Shown here piece after piece: positions 11,652-31,463 of a DNA stretch of 39,727 nucleotides (positions within the stretch are counted from its first letter, which is position 1; every line of letters starts with the position of its first letter). Origin of the DNA: a virus. Its lineage: Duplodnaviria; Heunggongvirae; Uroviricota; Caudoviricetes. The DNA is taken from the IMG/VR virus record IMGVR_UViG_2778261268_000004. The stretch is one strand, 5' to 3'. Made by a program: the position numbers and the translations under genes. Under the pieces are notes generated by a model that saw nothing but the letters and a program-made list of their open reading frames with translations, did no database searches and was not told the DNA's origin.

Positions 11652-11982
11652 ATCAGCAGCAGAGCGCAAAGCCGCTCAGAGAGCCAGACAAGCTGCATCT
11701 GGTGTGCGTAAGCTGGAAATTGTGCTTGATGCTCAGGAAATTGAAATGCTGGAGCGTAACTGTGCCGCGCGTCGCCCAGGGCGTGCGCCTTACGAATTTG
11801 GTGAGTATATAGCGTTACTGATCCGCCAGGATGATGCACGCGTGCGCGGGCGTATAAAATCGATCAGTAGAAAACGTTGCGGTAAGTGCGGCGAGAGAGT
11901 TCCAGTTAATTCATGTCCGTGTAATGGTGACTCACAATGCTGGGTGACTAAAGGCTGGCATGAAACGAAATTAATAGTGTGA
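11644..11982 (+). CDS. Hypothetical protein with C-terminal zinc ribbon (possible regulator)
   Basis: CGKCG...CPC cysteine cluster; last gene before the terminase; stop lies inside a GTGACATGTCAC palindrome. Confidence 0.5.
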   Translation: MAKSAAERKAAQRARQAASGVRKLEIVLDAQEIEMLERNCAARRPGRAPYEFGEYIALLIRQDDARVRGRIKSISRKRCGKCGERVPVNSCPCNGDSQCWVTKGWHETKLIV

Positions 11983-11990
11983 CATGTCAC
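11979..11990. repeat. Perfect 12-bp palindrome GTGACATGTCAC (copy 1)
   Basis: Exact string; overlaps stop codon of the 11644-11982 gene; terminator 40 bp downstream. Confidence 0.9.
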
Positions 11991-12031
11991 GAGTAGATTA
12001 TGCATGATGAATTTGACGGGTTTTGAATACT

Positions 12032-12058
12032 GCCGCCAACTATGGCGGCTTTATTTTG
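12032..12058 (+). terminator. Rho-independent terminator before the terminase genes
   Basis: GCCGCC-aacta-tGGCGGC followed by TTTATTTT. Confidence 0.65.
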
Positions 12059-12068
12059 CATGGTACTA

Positions 12069-12101
12069 TTACCACAACGGTAACTATTACCACGGTGGTT
12101 A
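12069..12101. promoter_or_regulatory. Tandem operator-like sites TTACC-acaac-GGTAA and TTACC-acggt-GGTTA upstream of terminase small subunit
   Basis: Direct repeat CTATTACCAC x2 forming one perfect and one imperfect palindrome. Confidence 0.45.
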
Positions 12102-12103
12102 TG

Positions 12104-12697
12104 ATGTCTGCTGAACCTAAAACCTATAAACGCAAATCAACGCAATTTAAGCCACTAACAGCAATGCAGGAGGCTTATTGCCAGTCATACATCAAAACGC
12201 CTGAAAACCAGACTCAGGCAGCGATTAACGCAGGATTCTCCCCAAATACAGCGGCAGTTAAAGCCAGTGTCATGATGCGCGATGAACGCATTCAAAAACG
12301 GATTGCCGAGTTGATGGAGGAGCGCAACAAACGAATGCGCGTCAGTGCTGATTACGTTCTCATGCGCCTGGTGGAGATCGACCAGATGGACGTGATCGAC
12401 ATCCTCAACGACGATGGGAGCCTTAAACCAATCCGTGAGTGGCCGAAAATCTGGCGCACTACGCTTAGTGGCTTTGATCTGTCATCGACCATCATGAACA
12501 TGAACGAGGATTCGATAGAGACAATCCTCAAAAAAATTAAATGGCCTGACAAGGTGAAGAACCTTGAGCTGATTGGTAAGCATGTTGATGTCAACGCGTT
12601 CAAAGAACGTCTGGATGTTAATGTGAATGTGACAATTGCTGATCGCATAGCAGCAGCCAGGAAGAGACTGAAAGAACGTCAGGATGGCAATCAGTGA
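12104..12697 (+). CDS. Terminase small subunit
   Basis: SPNTAAVKASVMMRDERIQKRIAELMEE pattern; ATG 12104 after GGTGG RBS; overlaps large subunit. Confidence 0.7.
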   Translation: MSAEPKTYKRKSTQFKPLTAMQEAYCQSYIKTPENQTQAAINAGFSPNTAAVKASVMMRDERIQKRIAELMEERNKRMRVSADYVLMRLVEIDQMDVIDILNDDGSLKPIREWPKIWRTTLSGFDLSSTIMNMNEDSIETILKKIKWPDKVKNLELIGKHVDVNAFKERLDVNVNVTIADRIAAARKRLKERQDGNQ

Positions 12698-14169
12698 CAG
12701 ATACAGCGTTATCTCCTGAAGAGCAGTTAATCGAGGATATTGCAGGGTTCACTCACGATCCGCTTGGCTATGCCCTCTATGCGTTCCCGTGGGGGGAAGA
12801 GGGTACTGAACTGGCACATGCCACCGGTCCACGTCAGTGGCAGGCCGATGCGTTCCGAGAGATACGTGATCACCTGCAGAATCCAGAGACGCGCTATCAG
12901 CCGCTTATGCTGGCACGCGCTTCTGGTCACGGTATTGGTAAATCCGCATTCATCTCAATGCTGATCAACTGGGGCATGTCCACTTGCGAGGATTGTAAGG
13001 TCGTGGTGACCGCCAACACCGACAACCAGCTACGAACGAAGACCTGGCCGGAAATTATCAAGTGGTCGAACCTTGCTATCACGAAAGAGTGGTTTACCTG
13101 TACCGCTACCGCGATGTACAGCAATGACCCTGGGCACGACAAGCGGTGGCGAGCTGACGCAATCCCCTGGTCTGAGCACAACACTGAGGCATTCGCCGGA
13201 CTACACAACGAGCGAAAACGCATCATCGTGGTATTCGATGAAGCGTCGAACATTGCGGATCTGGTGTGGGAAGTTGCTGAGGGTGCGCTTACGGACGAAG
13301 ACACTGAGATTATCTGGGTGGCGTTCGGAAACCCTACACGTAACACCGGACGTTTCCGCGAATGTTTCCGCAAATATAAACACCGCTGGAAAACTGCGCA
13401 GATTGACAGCCGAACGGTGGAAGGCACTAACAAACAGCAGTTGCAGAAATGGGTTGATGACTACGGGGAAGACAGCGACTTCGTTAAAATCCGTGTGCGC
13501 GGCATATTCCCTGATGCATCTGAATTGCAGTTTATCCCTACCGGTCTTACTGATGAGGCAATGAAACGGGTGGTAACCGCTGCGCAGGTGGCGCATGCTC
13601 CGGTGATAATCGGTGTTGACCCGGCATATTCAGGCGTTGATGACGCGGTGATATACCTGCGGCAGGGGCTACACAGTAAGGTGCTGTGGACTGGCAACAA
13701 GACTACCGACGATCTGATTATGGCGAAGCGTATCGCTGACTTTGAAGACCAGTATCAGGCTGACGCGGTGTTCATCGACTTCGGTTACGGAACCGGTCTG
13801 AAGTCAATCGGTGACGGATGGGGTCGTACATGGCAACTTGTTCCGTTCGGTGGCGCGTCTACTGACCCGCAGATGCTCAACAAGCGTGGGGAGATGTTCA
13901 ATTCATGCAAGACATGGCTGAGGCTGGGCGGCATGCTGGATGACCAGGAAACAGCAGACGACCTGTCGGCGGCAGAGTACAAAGTTCGAGTGGATGGTAA
14001 AATCGTTATCGAACCGAAGGAAGATATCAAGGAGCGGCTTGGGCGTTCGCCGGGTAAAGGCGATGCGCTACTGCTGACGTTTGCGTTCCCTGTGTCTAAG
14101 CGTCTGCGAATTCCCGGGCAGCAGAACCAGCAAGGCAAGGCCATCACAGATTACGATCCCTATGCTTAA
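12694..14169 (+). CDS. Terminase large subunit
   Basis: Walker A-like GHGIGKS, ATPase and nuclease regions (VFDEASN, GVDPA); 491 aa. Confidence 0.9.
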   Translation: MTDTALSPEEQLIEDIAGFTHDPLGYALYAFPWGEEGTELAHATGPRQWQADAFREIRDHLQNPETRYQPLMLARASGHGIGKSAFISMLINWGMSTCEDCKVVVTANTDNQLRTKTWPEIIKWSNLAITKEWFTCTATAMYSNDPGHDKRWRADAIPWSEHNTEAFAGLHNERKRIIVVFDEASNIADLVWEVAEGALTDEDTEIIWVAFGNPTRNTGRFRECFRKYKHRWKTAQIDSRTVEGTNKQQLQKWVDDYGEDSDFVKIRVRGIFPDASELQFIPTGLTDEAMKRVVTAAQVAHAPVIIGVDPAYSGVDDAVIYLRQGLHSKVLWTGNKTTDDLIMAKRIADFEDQYQADAVFIDFGYGTGLKSIGDGWGRTWQLVPFGGASTDPQMLNKRGEMFNSCKTWLRLGGMLDDQETADDLSAAEYKVRVDGKIVIEPKEDIKERLGRSPGKGDALLLTFAFPVSKRLRIPGQQNQQGKAITDYDPYA

Positions 14170-14199
14170 TCCGCTGGTTGGGATAATGTCGTTGATATC

Positions 14200-14243
14200 C
14201 TCTGATGAGGATAAAACAAAGCCAGCTCATCGGCTGGCTGTTT
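14200..14243 (-). terminator. Terminator hairpin after gp49-like gene
   Basis: GCCAGC-tcatcg-GCTGGC with T-rich run on the minus strand. Confidence 0.5.
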
Positions 14244-14255
14244 GTGACATGTCAC
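14244..14255. repeat. Perfect 12-bp palindrome GTGACATGTCAC (copy 2)
   Basis: Exact string; adjacent to hairpin 14221-14238. Confidence 0.9.
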
Positions 14256-14259
14256 GGTG

Positions 14260-14631
14260 TTATTGCTCGCTTAGCTTCTGCTTCAGCAAGTAACCTTCGA
14301 GCATCCAGATTTTGTTTACAGCATTCTGCCGGGCAATCTTCCGACCAATTTCTGCATCAAAGTTTTCCGGGCTTGCACAGGCGCTCTCTCCGGTGACGGT
14401 GAAGCCGTTGCGCAGCACCAGGACGCAGAACGTCAGCAGAGAAAGTGATTCGTGCGGCTGGTAGTTTACCTCTCCGCCAGTATGTTTCGCTTTTATGGCT
14501 TTGCCAAAGGCACCATCTTCTGCTGTGAAATATGCCTCCTGAGCAATAATGCCTTCGATATGGTCTGGCGTAACGCGCGGTGCCGTTTTGCCTTTCTCAA
14601 CGATTTCTTTTTCGATTTGCTGGTCGTTCAT
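14260..14631 (-). CDS. N4 gp49/Sf6 gp66-family protein (moron)
   Basis: 123-aa minus-strand ORF downstream of the tRNA with its own terminator; family call from remembered pattern. Confidence 0.6.
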   Translation of the reverse strand: MNDQQIEKEIVEKGKTAPRVTPDHIEGIIAQEAYFTAEDGAFGKAIKAKHTGGEVNYQPHESLSLLTFCVLVLRNGFTVTGESACASPENFDAEIGRKIARQNAVNKIWMLEGYLLKQKLSEQ

Positions 14632-14830
14632 AATCTCACCTTAAAAAAAATGCCCGGCGAACCAGGCGAACTGGAAGCAATGAGTTATGCCTTCCGTGGC
14701 TGTACTGGTTTACAGCATGAAGTCATCGCAATGGCGTCCTGCTGTAAAAAGGGCGGTGGTAGTCCTTCAAGGGAAACCATCACCGCCAAGCCTCTGGAAC
14801 TTCTGGCATCACGGTCCTTAGGCGTGATTC

Positions 14831-14907
14831 TGGCGTGGCATGCAGGATTCGAACCTGCGACCAACCGCTTAGAAGGCGGTTGCTCTGTCCAACTGAGCTA
14901 ATGCCAC
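14831..14907 (-). tRNA. tRNA-Arg (anticodon UCU)
   Basis: Cloverleaf folds by hand: acceptor GTGGCAT/ATGCCAC, D-stem GCTC/GAGC, anticodon stem ACCGC/GCGGT with loop CTTCTAA, T-arm GCAGG-TTCGAAT-CCTGC, discriminator G, encoded CCA. Confidence 0.85.
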
Positions 14908-15229
14908 AACGCTGAGAGCACTTAGCCTGTTAAGGCGCCACACTTTGTCGCGGCTCCATAAATGCTCTCATCGTTGTACCCTCGTCTCTTCCGAGGCGTC
15001 ACACCGAATCGCCGGGATGGTGAATCCCCGTGCGCGGAATAAAACCGCTCGACTTGCACATTCCGGCTACCTGGTTCGTTTGCCCGAGCAAGGGAGGGTG
15101 CCCCTTAAACGTATCCAGACCGCTATCGGCGCATGTGCCATACGCCGTACTGCTCAAAATAAAAGCTCACTCCACCTGTTCAATTTAACGACAAGCCAGT
15201 CAGGTTAATAACCGGAATGAACTCTTTGG

Positions 15230-15244
15230 TTACCTGAAAGGTAA
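15230..15244. promoter_or_regulatory. Operator-like palindrome TTACC-tgaaa-GGTAA upstream of the virion module
   Basis: Perfect half-sites; ATGTGGTT at 15289-15296 and GGTAAT at 15302-15307 nearby. Confidence 0.5.
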
Positions 15245-15334
15245 TAATTCGTGCGTTAAATGTCAACTATCTACGATAAATAAATCATATGTGGTTAAAT
15301 TGGTAATAATTTAATTGCGTACGGAGTCATTGAT

Positions 15335-15541
15335 ATGTGCATGGGTAGCTCACCGTCAGTGCCTGCAACACCAGAAGTTCAGGCAGCACCACAGGAGCAG
15401 GATGCCGCCGTTGTTGATGCCCGCGACGAAGAAACTCGTCGCCGTCGCGCTGCTGCTGGTCGTAGTTCTACGCTGCTTACCGGTTCTCAGGGTGACACAT
15501 CAACCGCTAATACCAGCGGTAAAACGCTGCTTGGTCAGTAA
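15335..15541 (+). CDS. Small virion-associated protein (T7 gp7.3-like composition)
   Basis: GGAG RBS 8 nt upstream; Ala/Arg/Gly-rich 68 aa; directly precedes portal. Confidence 0.45.
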   Translation: MCMGSSPSVPATPEVQAAPQEQDAAVVDARDEETRRRRAAAGRSSTLLTGSQGDTSTANTSGKTLLGQ

Positions 15542-15555
15542 CCGGAGTCATTGAA

Positions 15556-17235
15556 ATGGCGGAAACAACTAAAGAGCGATTGAACAAACAGTTCGCACAA
15601 CTTGAAAGCGAGCGTCAGTCGTTCGAGCCGCACTGGCGCGAGTTGAGTGATTACATCAACCCGCGTGGTTCCCGCTTTCTGACTTCTGAGGTCAACCGTA
15701 ACGATCGACGCAATACACGAATTATTGATTCGACCGGGACTATGGCAGCGCGCACTCTCGCCAGCGGCATGATGTCAGGCATCACAAGCCCCGCGCGTCC
15801 GTGGTTTCGCCTGGCTACGCCAGATCCTGAAATGATGGATTATGGCCCTGTTAAGTTGTGGCTTGAGGCGGTGCAGAACCGCATGAACGATATGTTCAAT
15901 AAGTCGAATCTCTATCAGTCGCTGCCGCAGTTATACGGAAGCCTCGGCACATACAGCACTGGTGCAATGGCAGTGCTGGAAGATGACGAGGACATTATTC
16001 GCACAATGCCATTCCCGATAGGCAGTTACTACCTGGCTAACTCACCTCGTGGAAGTGTGGACACCTGTTTTCGCAAGTTCTCTATGACTGTTCGTCAGCT
16101 TGTTCAGGAGTTCGGGCTAAATAACGTCAGCGAATCCGTAAAAAGCATGTGGGAAAGCGGCACCTACGAGAAGTGGATCGAAGTGATGCATTCGGTTTAC
16201 CCGAACATTGACCGCGATACATCGAAGCTGGATAGCAAGAACAAGCCATTCAAATCGGTTTATTACGAGGTTGGTGGCGATAACGACAAGTTGTTGCGTG
16301 AGTCCGGATTCGATGAGTTTCCAATTATGGCTCCGCGCTGGGAAGTTAACGGCGAAGATGTTTATGGATCATCATGCCCGGGTATGCTGGCGCTTGGACC
16401 TGTTAAGGCATTGCAGCTTCTCCAGAAGCGCAAGTCGCAGTTGATTGATAAAGCCACCAATCCGCCGATGGTTGCTCCGACTTCCCTCAAGAATCAGCGC
16501 GCCTCCCTTCTTCCTGGCGACATCACGTATATCGATCAGATTACTGGTCAGGATGGCTTCAGGCCTGCTTATCTGGTTAACCCCAGTACAGCAGATTTGG
16601 TGGCAGATATTCAGGACACTCGTCAAATCATTAACAGCGCCTACTTTGTCGATCTGTTCATGATGTTGCAGAACATCAATACCCGCTCGATGCCTGTTGA
16701 AGCGGTGATCGAAATGAAAGAAGAAAAACTTCTGATGTTGGGGCCGGTTCTGGAGCGTCTGAACGACGAATGTCTTAATCCTCTCATTGACCGCGCTTTC
16801 TCGATGATGGTGCGTAAAAACATGTTGCCGCCACCGCCTGACGCGATGGAAGGCATGCCCCTGAAGGTCGAATACATTTCCGTCATGGCTCAGGCGCAGA
16901 AGTCTATCGGCCTGTCCAGTCTGGCGTCCACGGTTAACTTCATTGGTCAACTTGCGCAAGCGAAACCAGAAGCTCTCGACAAACTCAACGTTGATCAGGC
17001 GATCGATGCATTCGCTGATATGTCTGGAGTGTCTCCAACCGTCATTGTTCCGCAGGAACAGGTTGAGCAGGCTCGCCAGCAACGGGCACAGCAGCAACAG
17101 CAGCAACAAATGATGGCGATGGGGATGGCGGCGGCACAGGGTGCCAAGACGCTAAGCGAAGCTAAAACTTCGGATCCGAGTGTTTTGTCAGCTATGGCGA
17201 ATGCAGTTAGTGGTCAGGGTGGGCAATCACAATGA
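15556..17235 (+). CDS. Portal / head-tail connector protein, T7 gp8-like
   Basis: 559 aa with C-terminal QQQQQMMAMGMAAAQG tail reminiscent of T7 gp8; position after terminase. Confidence 0.85.
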   Translation: MAETTKERLNKQFAQLESERQSFEPHWRELSDYINPRGSRFLTSEVNRNDRRNTRIIDSTGTMAARTLASGMMSGITSPARPWFRLATPDPEMMDYGPVKLWLEAVQNRMNDMFNKSNLYQSLPQLYGSLGTYSTGAMAVLEDDEDIIRTMPFPIGSYYLANSPRGSVDTCFRKFSMTVRQLVQEFGLNNVSESVKSMWESGTYEKWIEVMHSVYPNIDRDTSKLDSKNKPFKSVYYEVGGDNDKLLRESGFDEFPIMAPRWEVNGEDVYGSSCPGMLALGPVKALQLLQKRKSQLIDKATNPPMVAPTSLKNQRASLLPGDITYIDQITGQDGFRPAYLVNPSTADLVADIQDTRQIINSAYFVDLFMMLQNINTRSMPVEAVIEMKEEKLLMLGPVLERLNDECLNPLIDRAFSMMVRKNMLPPPPDAMEGMPLKVEYISVMAQAQKSIGLSSLASTVNFIGQLAQAKPEALDKLNVDQAIDAFADMSGVSPTVIVPQEQVEQARQQRAQQQQQQQMMAMGMAAAQGAKTLSEAKTSDPSVLSAMANAVSGQGGQSQ

Positions 17236-17528
17236 CAGATTACGAAGACGATCAACTGAAAGAAGAAAACGCCCGTAAGCAACGTGACATGGCGCAGCGT
17301 GAAATTGATGACATTCGCTTTGTCATGAGCAGTGAACAGGGGCGTCGCGTTGTCTGGTCGGTGCTGGAGAAAGGCCGTGTGTTTTCCGCTATCTCACCGA
17401 TGGACGCTATGGCAATGGCATTTAATGAGGGGCAACGCAATCTGGCGCTGGAACTGTTTCAGCGCGTTATGTCGCATTGCCCTGAACAGTATTTGAAGAT
17501 GGCCAAAGAGGCCAGTGAACAGGAGTGA
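17232..17528 (+). CDS. Hypothetical protein
   Basis: Coupled ORF between portal and scaffold. Confidence 0.5.
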   Translation: MTDYEDDQLKEENARKQRDMAQREIDDIRFVMSSEQGRRVVWSVLEKGRVFSAISPMDAMAMAFNEGQRNLALELFQRVMSHCPEQYLKMAKEASEQE

Positions 17529-17530
17529 TC

Positions 17531-18226
17531 ATGAATTTATTTGAGCGTTTGCTGTATCGCTGTCTTTGCAATGAGCAACCAGTCGATGGTGGAGCAGCTC
17601 CGGCTGCGTCAGAACCGTCAGCGCCTGCAGGTGATAACCCTGCTCCAGTTGGTGATCCATCACAACAGGAAGGTGATAAGCCACAACCTGTTGCTGATGG
17701 CGATAAACCTGCTGATGACAAAAAGCCTGAAAACGATAAGCAGGATGAAAAAAAGGACGGCGATAAACCAGAGGGGGCGCCTGAGAAGTACGAGTTTCAG
17801 GCTGCCGAAGGCGTAGAGCTGGATACAGAAGCGTTGAAGGAATTCGAGCCGGTGGCGCGAGAACTTAACCTGACCAACGAACAAGCGCAAAAGCTGGTTG
17901 ATGCTTATCCGAAGATTCTGGCAGGTGTTCAGCAGCGCCAGGCAGAAGCCTGGCAGAAAACAACAGAGCAGTGGGCTGCGGATGTAAAAGCTGACAAAGA
18001 AATCGGTGGCGACAAGTTGATTTCTAACCTTAGCGCCGCACAGCGTGCGCTTGACCAGTTCGGGACACCCGAGCTCAAAGAATATCTGAACACCACCGGA
18101 CTGGGTAATCACCCTGATCTGGTCAAAACGTTCGTGAAAATCGGAAAGGCGATGTCTGAAGATGGCATGGTCACCGGTGGTAATGAAGGCCAGCGTAGTG
18201 CGGCCGAAGTGCTCTATGGCAAATAA
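17531..18226 (+). CDS. Scaffolding protein (acidic)
   Basis: AGGAG RBS; acidic Pro/Asp/Lys-rich N-terminal half; precedes capsid gene. Confidence 0.55.
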   Translation: MNLFERLLYRCLCNEQPVDGGAAPAASEPSAPAGDNPAPVGDPSQQEGDKPQPVADGDKPADDKKPENDKQDEKKDGDKPEGAPEKYEFQAAEGVELDTEALKEFEPVARELNLTNEQAQKLVDAYPKILAGVQQRQAEAWQKTTEQWAADVKADKEIGGDKLISNLSAAQRALDQFGTPELKEYLNTTGLGNHPDLVKTFVKIGKAMSEDGMVTGGNEGQRSAAEVLYGK

Positions 18227-18240
18227 GAGAGGAAATAACA

Positions 18241-19227
18241 ATGGCTGTTAAAGGCTTAACTGCGCTAACGCTGGCTGACTGGGGTAAGCGCGTCGATCCA
18301 AACGGGAAAGTCGATAAGATTATCGAGCTTCTCGGTCAAACTAACCCGATCCTTCAGGATATGCCTTTTGTCGAAGGGAACCTTCCTACCGGACACCGAA
18401 CCACCATTCGTTCTGGTTTACCTTCAGCTACCTGGCGTTTGCTGAACTATGGCGTACAGCCAAGCAAATCAACCACAGTGCAGGTAACCGATTCCGTGGG
18501 CATGCTGGAAACCTATGCTGAAGTCGATAAGTCACTGGCTGATCTGAACGGCAATACCGCCGAATTCCGCCTGTCTGAAGACCGCGCATTTATTGAAGCG
18601 ATGAATCAGCAGATGGCGCAGACGCTGTTTTATGGTGATTCCAGCGTTAACCCTCAGCAGTTTATGGGACTTTCCTCCCGCTATTCCAGCCTGTCTGCGG
18701 GTAATGCTCAGAACATCATTGATGCTGGTGGCACGGGTACAGATAACACCTCAATCTGGTTAGTGGTGTGGGGCGAAAACACCGTGCATGGCATCTTCCC
18801 GAAAGGGCAGAAGGCTGGCATCCAGATGGAAGATAAAGGCCAGGTGACACTGGAAGATGCTAATGGCGGCAAGTACGAAGGCTATCGCACCCATTACAAA
18901 TGGGATAACGGACTTGCTCTGCGTGACTGGCGTTATGTTGTTCGCATTGCAAACATCGATGTCAGCAATCTTTCAGAACCTTCCTCTGCCGCAAATATTG
19001 CGAAGTTGATGGTTAAAGCACTGCATCGCATTCCAAACCGTGGCATGGGTCGCCCGGTGTTCTACATGAACCGCACTGTAGGCCAGGCTCTTGATCTGCA
19101 ATCTCTGGAGAAAACATCTCTGGCGATCAGCGTAAAAGAGACAGAAGGCGAGTGGTGGACGTCATTCCGTGGTGTACCAATCCGTGAAACTGATGCGCTT
19201 CTGGAAACAGAAGCCCGCGTGGTGTAA
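18241..19227 (+). CDS. Major capsid protein
   Basis: 328 aa at the canonical position; followed by a stem-loop. Confidence 0.7.
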   Translation: MAVKGLTALTLADWGKRVDPNGKVDKIIELLGQTNPILQDMPFVEGNLPTGHRTTIRSGLPSATWRLLNYGVQPSKSTTVQVTDSVGMLETYAEVDKSLADLNGNTAEFRLSEDRAFIEAMNQQMAQTLFYGDSSVNPQQFMGLSSRYSSLSAGNAQNIIDAGGTGTDNTSIWLVVWGENTVHGIFPKGQKAGIQMEDKGQVTLEDANGGKYEGYRTHYKWDNGLALRDWRYVVRIANIDVSNLSEPSSAANIAKLMVKALHRIPNRGMGRPVFYMNRTVGQALDLQSLEKTSLAISVKETEGEWWTSFRGVPIRETDALLETEARVV

Positions 19228-19243
19228 CGCCTGTTATTAACCT

Positions 19244-23958: not shown

Positions 23959-24503
23959 TGTGCGATCCGGTTATTGCTGGTGGCGCAATGCTCGCCATGA
24001 GTGGCATTCAGGCATACACCCAGTACCAACAGGGAAAGTATGCCTCGAAGGTTGCAGAAGCGAACGCAGATATAGCCACAGCTCAGGCAAATGATGCAAT
24101 AAACAGAGGTAACGCTGAAGCTGAGCAACGGCGCAGAGAGACCCGACAGCGGCTTGGTACACAGGCGGCGACAATGGGGGCTACCGGCGCTGATTTATCT
24201 ACAGGTAACGCGCTGGATATATTTGGCGACACTGCCCAGTTTGGCGCTCTTGATTCTCTGACGACGGTGAATAACGCGCAACGCGAGGCTTACGGTTATC
24301 AGGTTCAGGCTGCCAACTATAAAGCAGAAGCCAGTTCAGCCCGTAAACAGGGGAATGTGGGAGCAGCAACAACATTGCTCACTGCGCCTCTGAAGGCATA
24401 CGGTGCGTACCAGATGTTTGGTGGGACGTGGAGTCCGTTTACTCAAAGCACTCCTGCACCAATCGGGGCAGCAGCAGGAACCAGATTACCCGGAGGATTA
24501 TAA
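23958..24503 (+). CDS. Internal virion protein, gp14-like
   Basis: 181 aa Ala/Gln-rich. Confidence 0.5.
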   Translation: MCDPVIAGGAMLAMSGIQAYTQYQQGKYASKVAEANADIATAQANDAINRGNAEAEQRRRETRQRLGTQAATMGATGADLSTGNALDIFGDTAQFGALDSLTTVNNAQREAYGYQVQAANYKAEASSARKQGNVGAATTLLTAPLKAYGAYQMFGGTWSPFTQSTPAPIGAAAGTRLPGGL

Positions 24504-27016
24504 TGCCAGTCGTACCAACAGTATCCGGACGTCAGGTTGAGAGCCGTGGAGTTCAGTCAGCAGGCTTGCAGACGTTTTCTCAGCCAGGTATTGGTGATGC
24601 TTTTGTTCGGGCAGGGGCAGAGGCAATTGATGTTTTTGGTCAGGCAAAACAGCGTGCCAATATCGCTCTGGCTCAGGAGGCATCTCTTAACCTCAGTCAG
24701 ATAAGCAGCGATCTGTTGAATAACCCTGAAACAGGTTTGCTTAACCTGAAAGGGAAAAATGCTATTGGAAAAGGTCAGGAGTATACGCAGCAGTTTGATG
24801 CTCAGATCGAACAACTGGCTATGTCGCTGCCGGATGAACAGGCTCGTAATGCTTTCATGCAGCAGGCGCAGCAGCAGCGTATTCAGTTCACTACGCAGGC
24901 TGGGCGGCACGAGATAGGGCAAATAAATGCCTACGAAGAAGGCCAGTTTCAGGCGACGCTGCTGAACAATGGTAAAAATGCCGCAGCATTGTATGGCGAC
25001 AACGCCGCATACGTATTGGCTAATAAGCAAACTTTCCAGCAAATTGAGGATTACGGCATTGCGCATGGCTGGAGCGACGAGCAAATACAGGCCAAGAAAA
25101 TCGAGTTTAAAGAGAAGGTTGCTGATGCCGCATTGTCCCAGTGGTCGGCAAACAATGCGACCGCATTCATCCAAAGTAATGGCGAGTTAAGTGATACTGC
25201 TGCTGGAGCTCGCCGTGCTGTAGCAGATAGTGACTCTTCCGAGCGTGCCCGTGGCATACGCAACAATAACCCAGGAAATCTCGAATACAGCAAAACTAAT
25301 CCGTGGGTAGGCCAGACCGGTGATGATGGTCGATTTGCGAAATTCGAAACACCTGAACACGGGATTCGTGCATTAGGGCGGAACCTGATGTCGTATCAGA
25401 GGCAGGGTATTGATACCGTCAGTGAGATAATTAATCGCTGGGCACCGCCTACTGATAAAAATGACACTATGTCGTATATCAAAGCAGTGTGCGAACAACT
25501 TGGCGTTTCTGCTGATGAGCCTCTCGATGCATCTAATCCTGATACCCTGAAGGCGCTTTGTGCAGCCATTATCCATCATGAGAACGGTAGCCAGCCATAC
25601 AGTGATCAGCAGTTAACTGCTGGTGTCAGTGCAGCACTTGGTTTATCAACAATTCCAACCAACACCAAACGCTATACCGGTAATGCAGCATTCGATGCGG
25701 CATCTCCTGAGGCGCAGGCAAGTTTTATGCGACAGGCGGATCAACTGCGTCGGCAGCAGCAGGCTGAATATAAAACGATGATTGACAGCCAGGTTCGCGA
25801 TGCGACAGCTGCGTATATGCGTGGCGTTGAATTTCCTAACCCACCTGGTGAGGATGATTTTATTGCAGCTTATGGTGTCAGAGAAGGAAACCTGCGATAT
25901 ACCGAGTTTAAGAATACGCAGATCGCCGGACAGTATATAGGTTCTTTCCGCAACATGCCGACAAGCAGCATTACAGCATATGTTGAGCAATTACGCCCGG
26001 ATACTGGTGAGACAGGGGAGGGGTATGCGGCACGCGCAGCTCTTTATGACAACGTTGTTTCGGCTGCAAATCAGGTGATAAAGCAGCGGCAATCGGATCC
26101 TGTGCAGTTCTCTCTTGCCGCCGGACAGGCTAAGCCTATCGACATGAGCAATAAGGATAACTTTGGACAGAGCGTTGCCTTGCGTGCCGCTCAGGTCAGT
26201 GACCTTGCCAAGTCATATGGCACTCCACTGACGTTCTTTTCCAAAGACGAGGCCAATCAGATCGGTGTTTTCTTTCGTGATGCGCCCGTTTCCCAACAGG
26301 CAGCATATCTCGATACCATCAGGCAAAGCACTGGCGGTGGGCAGGTGTATATGTCAGCACTACAGCAGATCAGTGCCAACGCTCCATCTGCTGCCGTTGC
26401 CGGGATACTGATGGATAAGCCTGGTGTTATTTTGGCAGAAAAAAACTGGTTTAATCCGGATGTTTCCGTGTCTCCTGAAACCGCTGCGCAGACAATTCTT
26501 GCTGGCGCGGCGGCTCGTAAAGGTACTGATGATTCGAAAGGTATTCCGATGCCTAAAGATGCTGATCTTCGCCTTGAGTTTTCTGACATGGTGAAGGATG
26601 CATTTGCTGGTGATGCTCAGGGGGCATCAATGGCATACGAGATCGCAAAGGACTATTACGCTGGTGTGATGGCGAAAAAAGGCGTGGTATCAGGCGAAAT
26701 TGACAATGATATCTGGAAACAGGCTGTTAACGTAGCTACAGGTGGCGTGCATGACTATAACGGAATGGGGAATGTTCTTTTGCCGTGGGGAATGTCTGCA
26801 GAGCAATTCGATAAGCAGGTTAATCAGGCTTGGAATGAACAAGTTGTCGGCACAGGGATAAAAACACCGCCTGGTCAGTATGGTTTGCAAAGTTACGGCG
26901 ATAGTCAGTACCTAGTAAAACTTGGGACTGGATATCTGCTGAAGGATGATGGTTCTCCTGTTGTTCTTGATCTGACACAGAAGCGTCAGAGATTCTCCGG
27001 AGATATTCCGCAATGA
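24503..27016 (+). CDS. Internal virion protein, gp15-like, with NNPGN-motif domain (possible peptidoglycan hydrolase)
   Basis: ATG 24503 after GGAGG; conserved-looking segment GIRNNNPGNLEY...GRFAKF. Confidence 0.6.
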   Translation: MPVVPTVSGRQVESRGVQSAGLQTFSQPGIGDAFVRAGAEAIDVFGQAKQRANIALAQEASLNLSQISSDLLNNPETGLLNLKGKNAIGKGQEYTQQFDAQIEQLAMSLPDEQARNAFMQQAQQQRIQFTTQAGRHEIGQINAYEEGQFQATLLNNGKNAAALYGDNAAYVLANKQTFQQIEDYGIAHGWSDEQIQAKKIEFKEKVADAALSQWSANNATAFIQSNGELSDTAAGARRAVADSDSSERARGIRNNNPGNLEYSKTNPWVGQTGDDGRFAKFETPEHGIRALGRNLMSYQRQGIDTVSEIINRWAPPTDKNDTMSYIKAVCEQLGVSADEPLDASNPDTLKALCAAIIHHENGSQPYSDQQLTAGVSAALGLSTIPTNTKRYTGNAAFDAASPEAQASFMRQADQLRRQQQAEYKTMIDSQVRDATAAYMRGVEFPNPPGEDDFIAAYGVREGNLRYTEFKNTQIAGQYIGSFRNMPTSSITAYVEQLRPDTGETGEGYAARAALYDNVVSAANQVIKQRQSDPVQFSLAAGQAKPIDMSNKDNFGQSVALRAAQVSDLAKSYGTPLTFFSKDEANQIGVFFRDAPVSQQAAYLDTIRQSTGGGQVYMSALQQISANAPSAAVAGILMDKPGVILAEKNWFNPDVSVSPETAAQTILAGAAARKGTDDSKGIPMPKDADLRLEFSDMVKDAFAGDAQGASMAYEIAKDYYAGVMAKKGVVSGEIDNDIWKQAVNVATGGVHDYNGMGNVLLPWGMSAEQFDKQVNQAWNEQVVGTGIKTPPGQYGLQSYGDSQYLVKLGTGYLLKDDGSPVVLDLTQKRQRFSGDIPQ

Positions 27017-28815
27017 GTTACTTTGGCCTTAATCCAGTAAACCAGAATCAGCAGCTTGACGAAGCAGCATCAAATCCAGCTGGCTTTAACAGCGATGTTG
27101 GTTTTTTCGACAATGCTGTAGGAGCGGCATTGTCTGGTTTGTACTCCGGGCTGGTGGCAAAGCCAGATCAGTTGCTATGGGCAGGGATGGATAAAATCGT
27201 ATCCCCGATTGCTCAGTTTGTTAACGAAAACACCTCGCTCAATGACACTTCAGTTTCATACATTGCCGAGCAGAGAAAACTAGCAGAGCAGCAGGTTAAG
27301 CGGCTGACGCCTGATGCCGCGACAACCGGAACCGCCGGGCAGGTTCTTTATGGGTTGTTCGATATGGGCGGGCAGGCTGTTGTCGGTACAACGCTCGGTG
27401 GTCCGGTCGGAGGTGCTGCGGCGGTAACTTCGCTACAGGGTTTTTCTGAGTTTGAACGACTGACAGCGCAGGGGGTTGATTTCAGGACGGCGCAGGAAGC
27501 GGGATTAGTGCAGGGTATTACTGCTGGTGCCGGAACACTGATCCCTATGAGTCTCGGGTTACGTGCTGGTGGTGCGCTAGCGGAAGGTGTGGCGGCTCAG
27601 CTTGCGCGGACGGGTGAAAGTTCAGTGCGACGCGCCGCGGCAACAGCAGTACGTGCAACGCCAGATATTGCCTATGCCGCAGGTACAAATATTGCGTTCG
27701 GTATGGCACAGCGCGGGCTTACTGCAAAAACGCTTCGTGATGGTGGCTATAGCGAAATGGCTAACCAGTATGATGTGTTGGATCGACAGGCAATTGCTAT
27801 TGATGCTGTTCTTGGGGTGGCTTTTGGTGGTGTCGGCAGATTTATTAACTCTCGCGGCGAGTCTACAAACGCACCAAACTTTTCACCAGTTGATATCGAT
27901 GCTGCACTGGCGGCGAATGCCGCTCATCATGCTGAAATTGATATTGCTCCCGGCGTGCCGATCAATGTGCTTTCGCGCAATTCTCACATTCAGGCTCTGC
28001 GAAAAGCTATGTCTGATGTTAGCCAAGGGAGACCTGTAGACGTTGCCAGCATTGTTGAGTCTGCATCTTTCAGTGAAATTCCTGGGCGCAAGAATCTGCT
28101 GTCTCAGGCAGTTAATGAGGCTCTGTCATCTGTAGATGATGGAGTAACGGCGCGCGCTATCGAAAATCGGTTGCTTGAAGAACAGGCTGCGCAGCTTTTG
28201 CCGCGTGGCGATAGACAGGTTTACCAGTCTGAAATCGCTAATAGCCAACGAATTATCGACAATCTCACTGAACAGCGCGCACAAATTCTTGCAGAAGAGC
28301 CAACTGGTAGCGGTAAAGCTTTGTCTCGTGCTCGATCAGATAAACAGGCCAGAATTCGCGATATTGACCAACGAATCCGGCAGGCACAAGAACGCCTGGA
28401 ATTTTCCCGTAACGCGTTGGCGCCGCACGAGCCTGGAGGTCAGTTTTTTGAAGCTCGAGCAGAACTGGCACGGCGACAGCAGGCAGAAAGTGAACTTAAT
28501 GCTCAGGCTGTTTCATTCTATAAAACAGCAGAGGTCAGGACGCCAGACGAAGTAGCTCCTTTTGAGCCCGGTAAGATATTGCAACAGACAGAACAAAAAA
28601 TGATGGCAGATCCGGCAGGAGATATTGATCTGCGTATAGCTGAAGACTCGCTGCTTGAATCTCCGGACATGATAATCACCGTGCTGGATGATGATGGTAA
28701 TCCACAATCGCGCAGTGCGCGTGAAGTACTGGATGAAGCGAACAGGGAAAGTGAGCAGGCAATACAGGATTCCAGCCTGTTTGATGTTGCTGTGGCGTGT
28801 TTCTTGAGAGGTTAA
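27013..28815 (+). CDS. Internal virion protein
   Basis: 600 aa Gly/Ala-rich, coupled to neighbours. Confidence 0.55.
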   Translation: MSYFGLNPVNQNQQLDEAASNPAGFNSDVGFFDNAVGAALSGLYSGLVAKPDQLLWAGMDKIVSPIAQFVNENTSLNDTSVSYIAEQRKLAEQQVKRLTPDAATTGTAGQVLYGLFDMGGQAVVGTTLGGPVGGAAAVTSLQGFSEFERLTAQGVDFRTAQEAGLVQGITAGAGTLIPMSLGLRAGGALAEGVAAQLARTGESSVRRAAATAVRATPDIAYAAGTNIAFGMAQRGLTAKTLRDGGYSEMANQYDVLDRQAIAIDAVLGVAFGGVGRFINSRGESTNAPNFSPVDIDAALAANAAHHAEIDIAPGVPINVLSRNSHIQALRKAMSDVSQGRPVDVASIVESASFSEIPGRKNLLSQAVNEALSSVDDGVTARAIENRLLEEQAAQLLPRGDRQVYQSEIANSQRIIDNLTEQRAQILAEEPTGSGKALSRARSDKQARIRDIDQRIRQAQERLEFSRNALAPHEPGGQFFEARAELARRQQAESELNAQAVSFYKTAEVRTPDEVAPFEPGKILQQTEQKMMADPAGDIDLRIAEDSLLESPDMIITVLDDDGNPQSRSAREVLDEANRESEQAIQDSSLFDVAVACFLRG

Positions 28816-28820
28816 ATTAA

Positions 28821-31295
28821 ATGAGACAGGAATGTATACAAGCGGTCCAGCAGGTGGCGCAGCGCGCGTTAACGGCGCGAGAAATACAGAACATTGAAGA
28901 CCGCATTTATCGAAATATGCGCTCCATTGCTCGTGATGACCCGATGTCGTGGCGACAACTTTCCGAATCAGAACGGTTGTATCGTGCAGCACAATTGGCA
29001 TCTGAAGAATTACAGCGAGAAGCGGCATTAAAGAAACGTCGTGTGGCCCTCGCTATAGCCGCACGTCAGAGATTGGATAAATTTATCAATAGCTATCAAG
29101 GGGCTGATGGGAAACTTGGCGCTCTTAACCGTACTATTGCTTTTAATGCAGACGGTAAATCGAATTTCCTCTCTGTTGAATCCAGAACAAAAGCCACTCG
29201 TGATTATGCATTGAGTCAATTGCAGGAGGCATTTGAAGCAGTTGATCCTCGCTTTTTTGGCCTGTTTGAAGATGAAGCGGGCGTGCGTGACCTGGTATAT
29301 GAAATGCGAGGGCAAAATACTGGCAATGCTAAAGCAAGAAAAGGTGCTAAGGCGTGGAGAGAAGTGACAGATCTACTTCGCCGCCGGTTTAATGATGCTG
29401 GTGGGGACATTGGCTATCTCGAAAACTGGGGGATCCCTCAACATCATTCTATGGAAAAGGTTGGGGCGGTATCAAAGGATAAGTGGGTTAGCGATGTTAT
29501 AGGTAAGCTGGATCGCAAATATTATACCCGAGCCGATGGACAACTGATGAACGATGCCGAGTTGTCTGCATTTCTTGGAGAGGCTTATAACACGATCGCT
29601 ACTGGTGGGCTGAATAAGCTTACTGATACCGGAATGCGAATTTCCGGCGCACGTGCTAACCGTGGTAATGCATCACGACAGATACATTTCAAAGATGCAG
29701 ATTCCTATCTCCAATATCAACAACTTTATGGCGATCGCTCTCTATGGGAAATCATGGTCGGTCACCTGGAAGGTATCAGTAAAGATATTGCTCTGGTGGA
29801 AACATATGGTCCAAACCCCGATCATGTTTTCCGCTCTCTTCTTGATCAGGTGAAGGCAGAAACGGCAACAGCTAACCCGAGTAAAACCGGTAAAGTCGAG
29901 CGGCTGGCGAACAACACAGAGAATCTGTACAACTTTATTTCCGGAAAGACACAGCCTGTAGCGAATCCGCACATCGCGCGATGGTCTGACAATATCCGCA
30001 ACTGGCTGGTTGCCAGCAGACTCGGTTCCGCGTTGCTGTCATCGTTCTCTGATCTTGGGACCATGTATCTGTCTGCGAAGGTGACCAACCTTCCAATGAA
30101 CCAGTTATTCCGCAACCAGCTTGAAGCTATGGACCCAACGAACCGTACAGAACTTGCGCGGGCGCGCCGCGCTGGTCTGGCGATGGAATCTCTACTTGGC
30201 AGCGTTAACCGCTGGGCGATGGATAATATGGGGCCGTCAGTGTCTCGTTGGGCGGCAACGGCGGTAATGCGTGCCAGTGGGCTTACAGCATGGTCAGATG
30301 CGCACAAGCGCGCCTATGGCGTAACCATGATGGGAAGCCTGGGAGAAGTAGTGTCACGGACACCAGACCTTCGTAGCCTCGATGATTCTGATTTTCGCAT
30401 CCTGAAAAGCAAAGGGATTACTGACACAGACTGGAGCGTATGGAAGCTGGCGCAACAGGAGGACTGGGGGAACGGCAATAATACGATGCTGACACCGGAA
30501 AGCATTATGCGTATCCCTGATTCAGCAGTTAAACATCTTGGTGAGCCTGAACGCGTGAAATTTGAGGCAATGCGTAAACTGCTCGGTGCCGTAACTGAAG
30601 AAGTTGATATGGCTGTTATTACACCTGGAGCACGTGAGCAGCTGATAACCGGTTCTGGTATTCAGCGTGGAACATGGAAAGGTGAATTAACGAGAAGTGT
30701 TTTCCTGTTTAAATCGTTCCCTATCTCGGTTGTTATGCGTCACTGGTCACGCGCTATGGGTATGCCGTCTGCTGGTGGTCGTGCGGCATATATTGCGACG
30801 TTTATTGTCAGTACGACCATTCTTGGCGCTTTGTCGCAGCAACTTAACGACCTTGCGTCTGGTCGTAATCCTCGAGAGATGACAGGAGAAGATGCCGCAA
30901 AATTCTGGCTTGGTGCTCTACTGAAAGGTGGTGGTCTTGGCCTTTACGGTGACTTTTTATTGTCAGATCACACTAGGTACGGAAGCGGCGCGCTGGCGTC
31001 GATGCTTGGCCCGGTAGCTGGTCTGGTTGATGACGTAGTGAAGATTGCTCAGGGCATACCGTTAAATGCTGTGGAAGGGAAGAGTGAGCAGACTGGTGGT
31101 GATCTGGTGAAGCTGGGGAAAGGTTTGATGCCAGGTGCGAATCTCTGGTACTTAAAGGCGGCTCTCGATCATATGATCTTTAACCAGATGCAGGAGTATT
31201 TTTCACCAGGCTATTTGCGTAAAATGGAGCAACGTTCGAAGAAAGAGTTTAATCAGACATACTGGTGGCGACCTCAGGATGTCACTCCGCAATAA
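28821..31295 (+). CDS. Internal virion / ejection protein, gp16-like
   Basis: 824 aa, last large gene of the core block. Confidence 0.6.
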   Translation: MRQECIQAVQQVAQRALTAREIQNIEDRIYRNMRSIARDDPMSWRQLSESERLYRAAQLASEELQREAALKKRRVALAIAARQRLDKFINSYQGADGKLGALNRTIAFNADGKSNFLSVESRTKATRDYALSQLQEAFEAVDPRFFGLFEDEAGVRDLVYEMRGQNTGNAKARKGAKAWREVTDLLRRRFNDAGGDIGYLENWGIPQHHSMEKVGAVSKDKWVSDVIGKLDRKYYTRADGQLMNDAELSAFLGEAYNTIATGGLNKLTDTGMRISGARANRGNASRQIHFKDADSYLQYQQLYGDRSLWEIMVGHLEGISKDIALVETYGPNPDHVFRSLLDQVKAETATANPSKTGKVERLANNTENLYNFISGKTQPVANPHIARWSDNIRNWLVASRLGSALLSSFSDLGTMYLSAKVTNLPMNQLFRNQLEAMDPTNRTELARARRAGLAMESLLGSVNRWAMDNMGPSVSRWAATAVMRASGLTAWSDAHKRAYGVTMMGSLGEVVSRTPDLRSLDDSDFRILKSKGITDTDWSVWKLAQQEDWGNGNNTMLTPESIMRIPDSAVKHLGEPERVKFEAMRKLLGAVTEEVDMAVITPGAREQLITGSGIQRGTWKGELTRSVFLFKSFPISVVMRHWSRAMGMPSAGGRAAYIATFIVSTTILGALSQQLNDLASGRNPREMTGEDAAKFWLGALLKGGGLGLYGDFLLSDHTRYGSGALASMLGPVAGLVDDVVKIAQGIPLNAVEGKSEQTGGDLVKLGKGLMPGANLWYLKAALDHMIFNQMQEYFSPGYLRKMEQRSKKEFNQTYWWRPQDVTPQ

Positions 31296-31304
31296 GGATG
31301 AGAA

Positions 31305-31406
31305 ATGATTGCTTTTATTCTTGTTGTGTTTGCGCTTGTTGCACTTGGCGTTATGAACCGTAATGTATCATTGACGATGGCGAATTTGCTGTTGCAGTTA
31401 TTTTGA
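31305..31406 (+). CDS. Small hydrophobic peptide (33 aa)
   Basis: AAGGATGAG RBS; MIAFILVVFALVALGV hydrophobic N-terminus; not in ORF track (<60 aa). Confidence 0.3.
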   Translation: MIAFILVVFALVALGVMNRNVSLTMANLLLQLF

Positions 31407-31451
31407 TATTATCTGGTGTAGCAGGGTACATAGGCTTGTCATAACGTGAGC

Positions 31452-31463
31452 GTGACATGTCAC
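31452..31463. repeat. Perfect 12-bp palindrome GTGACATGTCAC (copy 3)
   Basis: Exact string; immediately upstream of terminator hairpin 31464-31482. Confidence 0.9.

Follow-up and report, generated by a model that had tools for sequence, protein, structure and literature searches.

Palindromic sites at the ends of transcription units in Uetakeviruses and their linkage to a gene for an RHH protein

What role could a perfect 12-bp palindrome have that recurs next to terminator hairpins in a phage genome? The window, by which we mean the whole stretch of 39,727 nucleotides that was analysed, is a phiV10/epsilon15-like (Uetakevirus) genome. A scan of the whole window located exact copies of the 12-mer, GTGACATGTCAC, at positions 11979-11990, 14244-14255 and 31452-31463, confirming the threefold presence of the palindrome that had been predicted, and two more matches with 2 mismatches at 17284 and 38436. 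T-run hairpins are located 41 nt, 4 nt and 0 nt away from the three copies, so that a terminator does stand beside each of them, as was also predicted. The Uetakeviruses (epsilon15, phiV10, SPN1S and SPC32H-like phages) include O157 typing phages and serotype-converting phages, and we know of no established mechanism by which their late operon is switched on or insulated. The features of the window to which we refer are listed below.

11644..11982, plus strand: gene for the candidate binder, a ribbon-helix-helix (RHH) protein of 112 aa in the epsilon15 gp49/phiV10 p55 family (PHROG 536); last gene before the terminase genes
11979..11990, no strand: palindrome copy 1 (tGTGACATGTCACg), overlapping the TGA that ends the RHH gene; terminator t1 follows after 41 nt
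12032..12057, plus strand: intrinsic terminator t1, GCCGCCAACTATGGCGGC then TTTATTTT (hairpin 12032-12049), 41 nt downstream of copy 1
12069..12101, no strand: two TTACC-N5-GGTAA copies between t1 and the terS ATG at 12102; a separate motif
12102..14169, plus strand: genes for the small and large terminase subunits, flanked by copies 1 and 2
14210..14239, minus strand: intrinsic terminator t2, AGCCAGCCGATGAGCTGGCT then TTGTTTTATC (hairpin 14239-14220), serving the minus-strand gene, 4 nt from copy 2
14244..14255, no strand: palindrome copy 2 (tGTGACATGTCACg), between the post-terL terminator hairpin and the stop codon of the minus-strand gene, 4 nt off
14260..14631, minus strand: accessory gene, Pfam Phage_gp49_66 (N4 gp49/Sf6 gp66 family), stop codon 4 nt from copy 2
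31452..31463, no strand: palindrome copy 3 (cGTGACATGTCACa), 3' of the last gene of the virion operon and abutting terminator t3
31464..31491, plus strand: intrinsic terminator t3, AGGCCGCTTTCGCGGCCT then TGTTTTTAAC (hairpin 31464-31481), 0 nt downstream of copy 3
31487..31720, minus strand: small-protein gene, N-terminus resembling a signal peptide (lipoprotein-like by eye); runs towards copy 3 and t3
38436..38447, no strand: degenerate copy (GTGACATGGCAT), over the stop codon of an Rz-like spanin gene

The copies had been described as intergenic throughout, which does not apply to copy 1, where the TGA at 11980-11982 is the stop codon of ORF 11644-11982. Read on the plus strand, t2 has a poor T-run (GTTTGTG). 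The stems of t3 are kept across the genus, and SPN1S has GTGACATGTCAT at the position equivalent to the copy at 38436. No feature is annotated on the palindrome sites in the GenBank records of epsilon15 and phiV10. The phiV10 record starts inside copy 1; this start was considered as a genome end and rejected, since the first base of the record is the one that follows the stop codon of the last gene, and we judge it to be an annotation convention. The palindrome was also rejected as the operator of the prophage repressor, the epsilon15 repressor site being annotated as TTACC-N5-GGTAA, which is present in 13 copies in the window. The boxes of CRP, LexA and SlmA were also rejected, as they mismatch in half-site or spacing. 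Finally, the gene at 14260..14631 is not the epsilon15 gp49 regulator but a member of the N4 gp49/Sf6 gp66 family.

The number of copies of the 12-mer was matched in 0 of 100 dinucleotide shuffles, and a perfect 12-bp palindrome was present at least twice in 3 of 200. Some 12-mer was present three times or more in 48 of 200 shuffles. As triple occurrence alone is common in shuffled sequences, the significance rests on the palindromic character and on the conservation across genomes. The presence of the 12-mer at equivalent positions in related phages was borne out in the Uetakeviruses. The motif was perfectly kept at two or three of the window's positions in five diverged members, with diverging flanks: epsilon15, Tyrion and SPN1S had the exact 12-mer at all three equivalent positions, Kp4865-1 kept two and had its third copy elsewhere, and BUCT554 had two along with a one-mismatch copy.

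The 12-mer lies at the core of a motif of 14 bp, YGTGAC-NN-GTCACR. We counted 29 occurrences of GTGAC-N2-GTCAC in 10 phage genomes (0.4 expected) and 35 in 27 species loci (0.5 expected), whereas these half-sites in any other spacing or orientation were at chance level. The control phages P22 and BcepC6B had neither the motif nor a homolog of the protein described below. In 132 distinct contexts, the half-sites were invariant and the central dinucleotide was variable. Position -1 of the half-sites was a pyrimidine in 258 of 264 cases, and the choice between T and C was independent on the two sides (71 mixed, 39 C..G and 17 T..A), with no base-pair covariation of the flanking Y/R among the 132 contexts. 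Invariant half-sites, a free centre and independent flanks together point to a site in double-stranded DNA bound by a symmetric dimer, and not to an RNA hairpin. A scan of the collection with TGTGACATGTCACA yielded at least 120 matches, all in parts of contigs for which the presence or absence of the protein is not scorable. A search of the full-text literature with the 12-mer and six variants of its central dinucleotide retrieved nothing relevant; a mention in Kropinski 2007 (epsilon15) or Perry 2009 (phiV10) is possible.

The motif is tightly linked across lineages to the gene family represented by ORF 11644-11982. GTGAC-N2-GTCAC was located near the end of the family gene, at -5 to +30 nt in 75 of 80 close relatives and at 0-14 nt in 20 of 27 species genomes (50-82% identity), two more of which had a copy with one mismatch. 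Of the 51 N15-like loci found with the N15 and K308 proteins, 49 had the site at -15 to +40 nt relative to the end of the gene. The linkage extends to the myovirus ZF40, the lambdoid phage Chlobot and N15, and the site also accompanies the family gene in a Pseudomonas element (P. fluorescens-group), the protein of which is 33% identical. The genes that flank the pair are unrelated among ZF40, Chlobot, N15 and the Pseudomonas element, and the hosts of the family are mostly Enterobacterales, Vibrionales or Aeromonadales. The site and the protein recur together in many unrelated temperate phages, and we found no description of the pair.

The linkage has exceptions in both directions. Family members without an adjacent site were seen in Yersinia YenM_42.18, an Aeromonas phage, K308 and a Serratia element. 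The complete lambdoid phages Fraca and LMessi have the motif at the junction of the cro stop and the start of the next gene and inside Q, and no family member was detectable in them by HMM at E values up to 10. Many lambdoid fragments in IMG/VR contain the motif in the same cro-end context. For the Fraca and LMessi sites, either another binder exists or the sites are used in trans; a search for an alternative binder common to these two phages and those that carry the family identified none. The copy in Q falls at the start of the zinc finger, where it encodes V-T-C-H, and may be a by-product of coding.

The family protein consists of an N-terminal basic helix, an RHH core, a long helix and a Cys-rich C-terminus. 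The core has the strand-helix-helix arrangement and is able to dimerise, the N-terminus is arginine-rich, and the Cys-rich C-terminus is probably zinc-binding. No Pfam match was obtained at E values up to 0.01 and no Q family was detected; PHROG 536 is labelled 'transcriptional regulator' only. The best PDB sequence matches to the C-terminal half (long helix, CxxC..C..C, short helix) were TraR and YbiI, both with weak scores: E = 0.03 over nearly the whole of TraR (hhalign E = 1.6e-4, probability 51%) and E = 0.04 for YbiI. The second CxxC pair is not conserved in the family. The zf-dskA_traR family was absent among the best 25 of the 40 Pfam families matched, and structure searches gave no TraR or DksA, Foldseek against PDB and BFVD being uninformative for the C-terminal module.

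In the annotated genomes examined, the sites were located between co-directional or convergent genes or within genes, and none was in a divergent promoter region. Terminator-like hairpins with a T-run started 0-60 nt downstream of 23 of 64 sites as compared to 3.3% of random positions, a control that includes coding DNA and so overstates the enrichment relative to an intergenic background. Sites at junctions or inside genes without a terminator were seen in ZF40, N15, Chlobot, K308 and many lambdoid contigs. Terminator adjacency is real in the Uetakevirus genus and enriched overall, and it is not a defining property of the site. A sigma-70 promoter conserved alongside the site was not found, and hence a strict Q-like mechanism is not supported; a weak promoter-like match at the site (GTGACA-18-CATGAT, 9/12) is not conserved in epsilon15 or Kp4865-1.

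Among the roles suggested by the original prediction, the evidence supports that of a site bound by a dimeric regulator, with the RHH protein encoded immediately upstream of copy 1 as the candidate. With slightly better than even confidence, we suggest that YGTGAC-NN-GTCACR is a 14-bp operator, most likely bound by a homodimer of the RHH and Cys-rich protein, that controls transcription at operon boundaries. From the association of gene and site, we infer that the protein would bind the site. It would then occupy the end of its own operon ahead of t1 and the terminase genes at copy 1, the convergent junction of terL and the minus-strand accessory gene at copy 2, and the convergent junction of the virion operon and the minus-strand accessory genes at copy 3. 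The three occupied sites would mark the 3' boundaries of transcription units, and the bound protein would govern the crossing of these boundaries by RNA polymerase rather than initiation. Possible outcomes are insulation or a roadblock, or modulation of the adjoining terminators, perhaps with read-through of t1 into the late genes as in a Q-like layout of gene, site, terminator and late genes. Among the points against this proposal are the exceptions to the linkage given above, the order of hairpin and site at copy 2, which differs between the strands, and the location of the operator, as RHH autorepressors do not typically have theirs at the 3' end of the gene that encodes them.

A broader and more doubtful reading is that the gp49-family protein and the YGTGAC-N2-GTCACR sites constitute an unrecognised portable control system of temperate phages and phage-plasmids, acting on DNA where transcription units end and not at promoters. 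The DNA-tethered RHH/TraR-like factor might capture RNA polymerase as it leaves the gene and alter its stopping at the next terminator, which would make it a promoter-independent functional analogue of Q. Alternatively, the pair might be a MatP/matS-like system private to the phage and one base pair off the host register, organising or insulating the phage chromosome. On this reading, the cro-junction copies in lambdoid phages without the protein would serve as targets in trans among phages resident in the same host.

We think it unlikely that a host factor, notably MatP, recognises the site, with the phage engaging or evading the terminus-region organisation of the host and MukBEF. The half-sites do equal those of matS, GTGAC-RNY-GTCAC (PMC6907758, PMC3603311), the host range of the family is compatible with this idea, and Fraca and LMessi contain the motif without the phage protein. 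However, the spacer was 2 nt and not 3 nt in 132 of 132 contexts, the 13-bp form was at chance level in these phages, and the true matS is reported to be missing from 500 prophages (PMC3603311). Recognition by a host factor would also leave unexplained why the site is tied so closely to the 3' end of a single phage gene. The site further accompanies the family gene in the Pseudomonas fluorescens-group element, and this host lineage is not known to have MatP.

Equally improbable in our estimate is that the palindrome serves as a signal or hotspot for module exchange, a recombination linker for which the RHH protein may be an accessory factor. The mosaic patterns are suggestive of such a role. 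Among relatives with RHH genes that are >96% identical, two unrelated alternatives are found to the right of copy 1, switching exactly at the edge of the palindrome. Copy 2 is likewise a mosaic junction, the right flank of which differs among relatives: there are at least 6 alternatives, all ending 4 nt from the palindrome, in at least 3 gene families as judged by C-terminal sequences. Lambdoid contigs join several cro families to several gene families through the same 14-mer. A like pattern is, however, given by any conserved functional site between exchangeable modules. No recombinase or nuclease accompanied the site with any consistency, a stretch of only 12-14 bp offers little length for homologous exchange, and copies are located inside genes in ZF40, N15, Fraca and LMessi, in the last two within Q.

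Still less probable is an RNA hairpin (GUGA-CNNG-UCAC) in 3' UTRs and junctions that acts in nut-like antitermination, processing or translational coupling. The site is transcribed shortly before terminators, its sequence includes TGA and, where the centre is AT, also ATG, which provide upstream stop and downstream start codons in Fraca-type phages, and it follows cro, where lambda has nutR; the arginine-rich N-terminus of the protein would also suit this role. On the other hand, all four combinations of the flanking Y/R are present without pairing covariation, and an invariant 'stem' with a variable 'loop' is the opposite of boxB-type elements and unlike N/nut/put systems. The 4-bp stem is very weak, convergent junctions are used such that either strand could be the transcribed one, and RHH domains bind duplex DNA.

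A packaging signal, which was among the roles first suggested, is very improbable in the form of a pac-related site recognised with terminase. In its favour, terS lies about 110 nt downstream of copy 1, the terminase genes are enclosed by copies 1 and 2, and the site of Vibrio phage K308 is 31 nt upstream of terS. Against it, each genome contains three identical copies, the cos phage N15 has its sites in the early/replication region and its annotated cohesive end in another place, and the sites of ZF40 and Chlobot are far from their terminase genes.

The preferred reading, an operator bound by the RHH protein, nominates one cis element and one protein for the control of the late operon in Uetakeviruses. 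The pair is common to myoviruses, lambdoid phages, N15-like phage-plasmids, Vibrio phages and a Pseudomonas element, so that whatever is learned from one of them would serve to annotate PHROG 536 and the recurrent motif across many genomes. The site coincides with mosaic breakpoints, which makes it relevant to module exchange in phages, and its near-identity to matS at an offset of one base pair raises the question of whether the RHH systems of phage and host are deliberately orthogonal.

The E. coli site of MatP, matS, is the 13-bp GTGACRNYGTCAC (PMC6907758), with which the phage site shares identical 5-bp half-sites in inverted orientation. Both systems have several dispersed sites per replicon and an RHH-fold binder, which for the phage is a candidate. 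In contrast to matS, the phage spacer is always 2 nt, one base shorter, and the site is also present in the Pseudomonas element. The phage protein has neither the four-helix bundle nor the coiled coil of MatP; hhalign gave a probability of 0.3% for homology and the MatP families were absent among the best 25 of the 40 Pfam families matched. The C-terminal half may resemble DksA/TraR C4 zinc-finger proteins, which are ligands of the RNA polymerase secondary channel, with weak scores, in its long helix, CxxC..C..C and short helix. It differs from their CxxC-N17-CxxC after a coiled-coil helix in that the second CxxC pair is not conserved.

As in lambda Q/QBE/tR', a regulator gene, a DNA site, an intrinsic terminator and late (terminase) genes follow each other in this order. 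Unlike in lambda, no conserved promoter overlaps the phage site, two of the three sites in the window are at convergent junctions, and the gp49 family gave no Pfam match to a Q family at E values up to 0.01 and occurs in phages with Q homologs of their own (ZF40, Chlobot and N15). Compared with RHH pairs such as Arc, Mnt, CopG, AmrZ and RHH antitoxins, the phage sites are located at the 3' ends of genes, between convergent genes or inside genes and not at the promoter of the protein's gene, one site keeps its place at the stop codon of that gene from lineage to lineage, and the protein has an additional Cys-rich C-terminal module. What the phage pair has in common with them is the small size of the protein, its dimeric RHH fold and basic N-terminal arm, and a short palindromic DNA target with invariant half-sites and a free centre.

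The window comprises nearly the whole genome of a phiV10/epsilon15-like podovirus of the genus Uetakevirus; positions 11500-15500 are 95-98% identical to vB_EcoP_ZX5, phiV10, the O157 typing phages 9 and 10, TL-2011b and others. Its gene order matches the annotated phiV10 and epsilon15 records and runs from the integrase, leftward early genes, repressor, rightward early/replication genes and nin-like genes to the terminase, portal-to-virion genes, minus-strand accessory genes, tailspike and lysis genes. The palindrome GTGACATGTCAC matches exactly at 11979, 14244 and 31452. Each copy marks the end of one of three consecutive units: first the nin/early-right operon, then the terminase operon, which here faces a minus-strand accessory gene, and last the virion operon, which faces the minus-strand accessory genes. 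Read toward the good T-run, every copy has the order gene stop, palindrome, hairpin, T-run.

Palindrome copies in the window and the adjoining terminator-like hairpins with T-run
11979-11990: copy 1; hairpin 12032-12049, + strand, 41 nt downstream
14244-14255: copy 2; hairpin 14239-14220, - strand, 4 nt off
31452-31463: copy 3; hairpin 31464-31481, + strand, directly abutting the copy

The original prediction held that three copies are far beyond chance and that all are intergenic. A perfect 12-bp palindrome was present at least twice in 3 of 200 dinucleotide shuffles, whereas some 12-mer was present three times in 48 of 200, so that the triple occurrence alone is weaker evidence than had been thought; the palindromic nature and the comparative data carry the weight. 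Copies 2 and 3 are intergenic, but the TGA of copy 1 is the stop codon of ORF 11644-11982. The lysis operon ends with an Rz-like spanin gene whose stop codon is overlapped by a decayed palindrome, GTGACATGGCAT (38436-38447); the SPN1S counterpart, at 26722, is GTGACATGTCAT. This decayed copy may represent a fourth site, either weak or former.

The original prediction would have failed had relatives lacked the 12-mer at matching places, but they keep it: epsilon15, Tyrion and SPN1S each have an exact copy at every one of the three equivalent positions. Two positions are kept in Kp4865-1, which has its third copy elsewhere, and in BUCT554, which has an additional one-mismatch copy; in phiV10 one copy is divided by the record ends and contains one mismatch. 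Alignments of ±70 nt reveal the palindrome and the terminator stems as an island of identity, the remaining flanks being diverged or unalignable. Ten phage genomes together contain 29 instances of the general form GTGAC-N2-GTCAC, where 0.4 would be expected, and 27 species loci contain 35, against an expectation of 0.5; other spacings, swapped orientation and direct repeats of the half-sites are all at chance. The motif is absent from P22 and from BcepC6B, which has the epsilon15-type virion module in common according to annotation notes for epsilon15 and phiV10.

The junctions at the palindromes are mosaic. To the right of copy 1, relatives whose genes for the ribbon-helix-helix (RHH) protein of ORF 11644-11982 are >96% identical switch exactly at the palindrome edge between two unrelated alternatives. 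To the right of copy 2 there are at least six alternatives, representing at least three gene families by reading of the encoded C-termini, and the stop codon is always 4 nt from the palindrome. Among the matches listed in a scan of IMG/VR for TGTGACATGTCACA were many enterobacterial lambdoid fragments, in which the site lies over the stop codons of several cro families and the ATG of several downstream genes. The site could promote module exchange; however, a conserved functional site that persists while its neighbours are swapped explains the mosaic pattern equally well.

A binding site for a dimeric regulator, one of the roles originally proposed, is the best-supported reading, and a candidate protein can be named. 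The 112-aa product of ORF 11644-11982 is phiV10 p55 / epsilon15 gp49, for which the sole label is 'transcriptional regulator' (PHROG 536) and no Pfam family was found. The gene originally called gp49-like (14260-14631) is a different one, Pfam Phage_gp49_66, distinct from the epsilon15 gp49 regulator. The gp49/p55 family is small, with 156 representatives at 50% identity among 1.8 billion proteins. In its alignment, R8 is invariant and R13 at least 90% conserved within a basic N-terminal helix; after a strand-helix-helix core and a long helix comes a Cys-rich end, in which C79 and C82 are invariant and C99 is at least 90% conserved. The best PDB sequence matches of the C-terminal half, to TraR and YbiI of the DksA/TraR zinc-finger family, are weak (E 0.03, hhalign probability 51%), and neither the Pfam families listed nor structure searches confirmed this likeness.

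Of 80 close relatives in IMG/VR, 75 have the site over or just after the family gene's stop codon. The same linkage was found in 20 of 27 GTDB species genomes from Citrobacter, Klebsiella, Pantoea, Erwinia, Xenorhabdus and Serratia (protein identity 50-82%), two more having a one-mismatch copy. Searches with the N15 and K308 proteins gave 51 loci, 49 with GTGACTGGTCAC over the stop codon of the family gene, and all 49 N15-like loci carry the stop-codon site. Gene and site are linked in this way also in Pectobacterium myovirus ZF40, which has three exact copies, in the lambda-like phage Chlobot, in N15 itself and, at a protein identity of only 33%, in a Pseudomonas fluorescens-group element. 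Simple synteny does not account for the linkage, since the neighbouring genes are entirely different from one of these phages to the next. Many distant family members are on contigs of 42-46 kb, approximately the size of a whole phage-plasmid.

There are exceptions. No site was found within the 6-kb loci of Yersinia vB_YenM_42.18 and an Aeromonas phage; in Vibrio K308 the nearest site is 226 nt from the family gene, and another is 31 nt upstream of terS. A Serratia phage-plasmid has two tandem GTGACGCGTCAC sites (12475 and 12498, 23 bp apart) 2.1 kb from its family gene, at the junction where a Bro-N gene and an HTH gene converge. Conversely, the complete lambdoid phages Fraca (copies at 29464 and 33314) and LMessi (7323 and 3472) have the motif at the junction of cro with the next gene and within Q, and a six-frame HMM search (E up to 10) matched no family member in them. 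The Q-internal copy encodes V-T-C-H of the Q zinc finger and may be a coding by-product. The junction copy, in which the TGA is the cro stop codon and the central ATG the next start codon, is harder to dismiss. These sites may have a different binder or may serve a co-resident phage in trans; no alternative small DNA-binding protein common to them and the family-carrying phages was found. This exception lowers confidence in the gp49 family as the sole reader of the site.

The half-sites GTGAC and GTCAC are invariant in all 132 distinct contexts gathered across the analysis, and the central dinucleotide varies (AT, CA/TG, AC/GT, CC/GG, GC, AG/CT). A pyrimidine stands outside the half-site in 258 of 264 cases, giving YGTGAC-NN-GTCACR, and the outer bases are independent (71 mixed, 39 C..G, 17 T..A), with no base-pair covariation. 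Fixed arms, a free centre and symmetric, independent flanks are the pattern that a two-fold symmetric protein would leave on duplex DNA. A functional RNA hairpin would show the opposite, a covarying stem and a conserved loop, and the motif is not a nut or put RNA element.

In the annotated genomes examined, sites lie at co-directional junctions, convergent junctions or within genes, and none in a divergent promoter region. Of 64 sites, 23 have a terminator-like hairpin with T-run starting no more than 60 nt downstream; for random positions, a background that takes in coding DNA, the proportion is 3.3%. Part of this adjacency may be the mere location of non-coding DNA in compact genomes. The terminator originally noted beside each copy is found in Uetakeviruses and in Pantoea and Xenorhabdus prophages, but since sites in ZF40, N15, Chlobot and K308 lack it, often standing directly before a ribosome-binding site and start codon, it is frequent rather than defining. 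From this placement we infer that the gp49-family protein would control the passage of RNA polymerase from one operon into the next, either through roadblock/insulation or through an effect on the adjoining terminator. We rate motif and protein as a probable RHH protein-operator pair with unusual gene-end placement and wide spread over phage lineages. No description of the motif was found in the searchable literature, which did not extend to the two original genome papers.

The palindrome is neither a LexA box nor the operator of the prophage repressor, for which the epsilon15 record annotates a different motif, TTACC-N5-GGTAA. That other repeated motif has 13 copies in the window against 0.7 expected. 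They lie near most operon starts, late operons included, with two more within the minus-strand accessory region, which suggests that many transcription units are under direct repressor control. Two stand between t1, the intrinsic terminator at 12032-12057, and the terS start codon (12102); no conserved sigma-70 promoter was found between copy 1 and terS. In some relatives from Klebsiella, Enterobacter and Citrobacter (Kp4865-1, BUCT554 and two further sequences, L095 and L096), copy 1 is directly followed by a TTGACT..TATACT promoter with a LexA box (TACTGTTTAAATGTACAGTA), and an extra gene comes between this promoter and terS.

Other elements in the window
6481, 6543, 7255, 7303, 9586, 9648, 12069, 12087, 15230, 32439, 33506, 33886, 36531: TTACC-N5-GGTAA
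15287, 33931 (exact); 7664, 9633, 33957, 36567, 36571 (one mismatch): ATATGTGGTT, recurring at operon starts, roughly 30-50 nt downstream from several of the repressor sites; a possible promoter or leader element, only marginally more frequent than by chance (7 matches, 2.5 expected; 7 reached in 4 of 100 shuffles)
8213-8353: CCAAAAACGGGA, six direct repeats spaced by about 18-45 bp, four of them exact and two with a single mismatch, within the replication-initiator gene 7951-8766; similar in appearance to lambda O-type origin iterons
14831-14907, - strand: tRNA-Arg (anticodon TCT), within the variable stretch that separates copy 2 from the portal operon
33831-33846: CTGTATATTTATACAG, perfect LexA-box-like sequence between the minus-strand accessory genes and the tailspike gene

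The arrangement of regulator gene, its DNA site, terminator and late genes resembles the lambda Q module. However, the promoter required by Q is not evident at copy 1, and the gp49 family coexists with separate Q homologs in ZF40, Chlobot and N15. The half-sites equal those of matS, the site of the host RHH protein MatP, but the phage spacer is always 2 nt, compared to 3 nt in matS. Profile comparison gave no MatP homology for the gp49 family, true matS is reported absent from 500 Escherichia and Salmonella prophages (PMC3603311), and the phage site accompanies the gp49 family in the Pseudomonas element. For these reasons we do not file the motif as matS; it may behave like a private, out-of-register counterpart of it.
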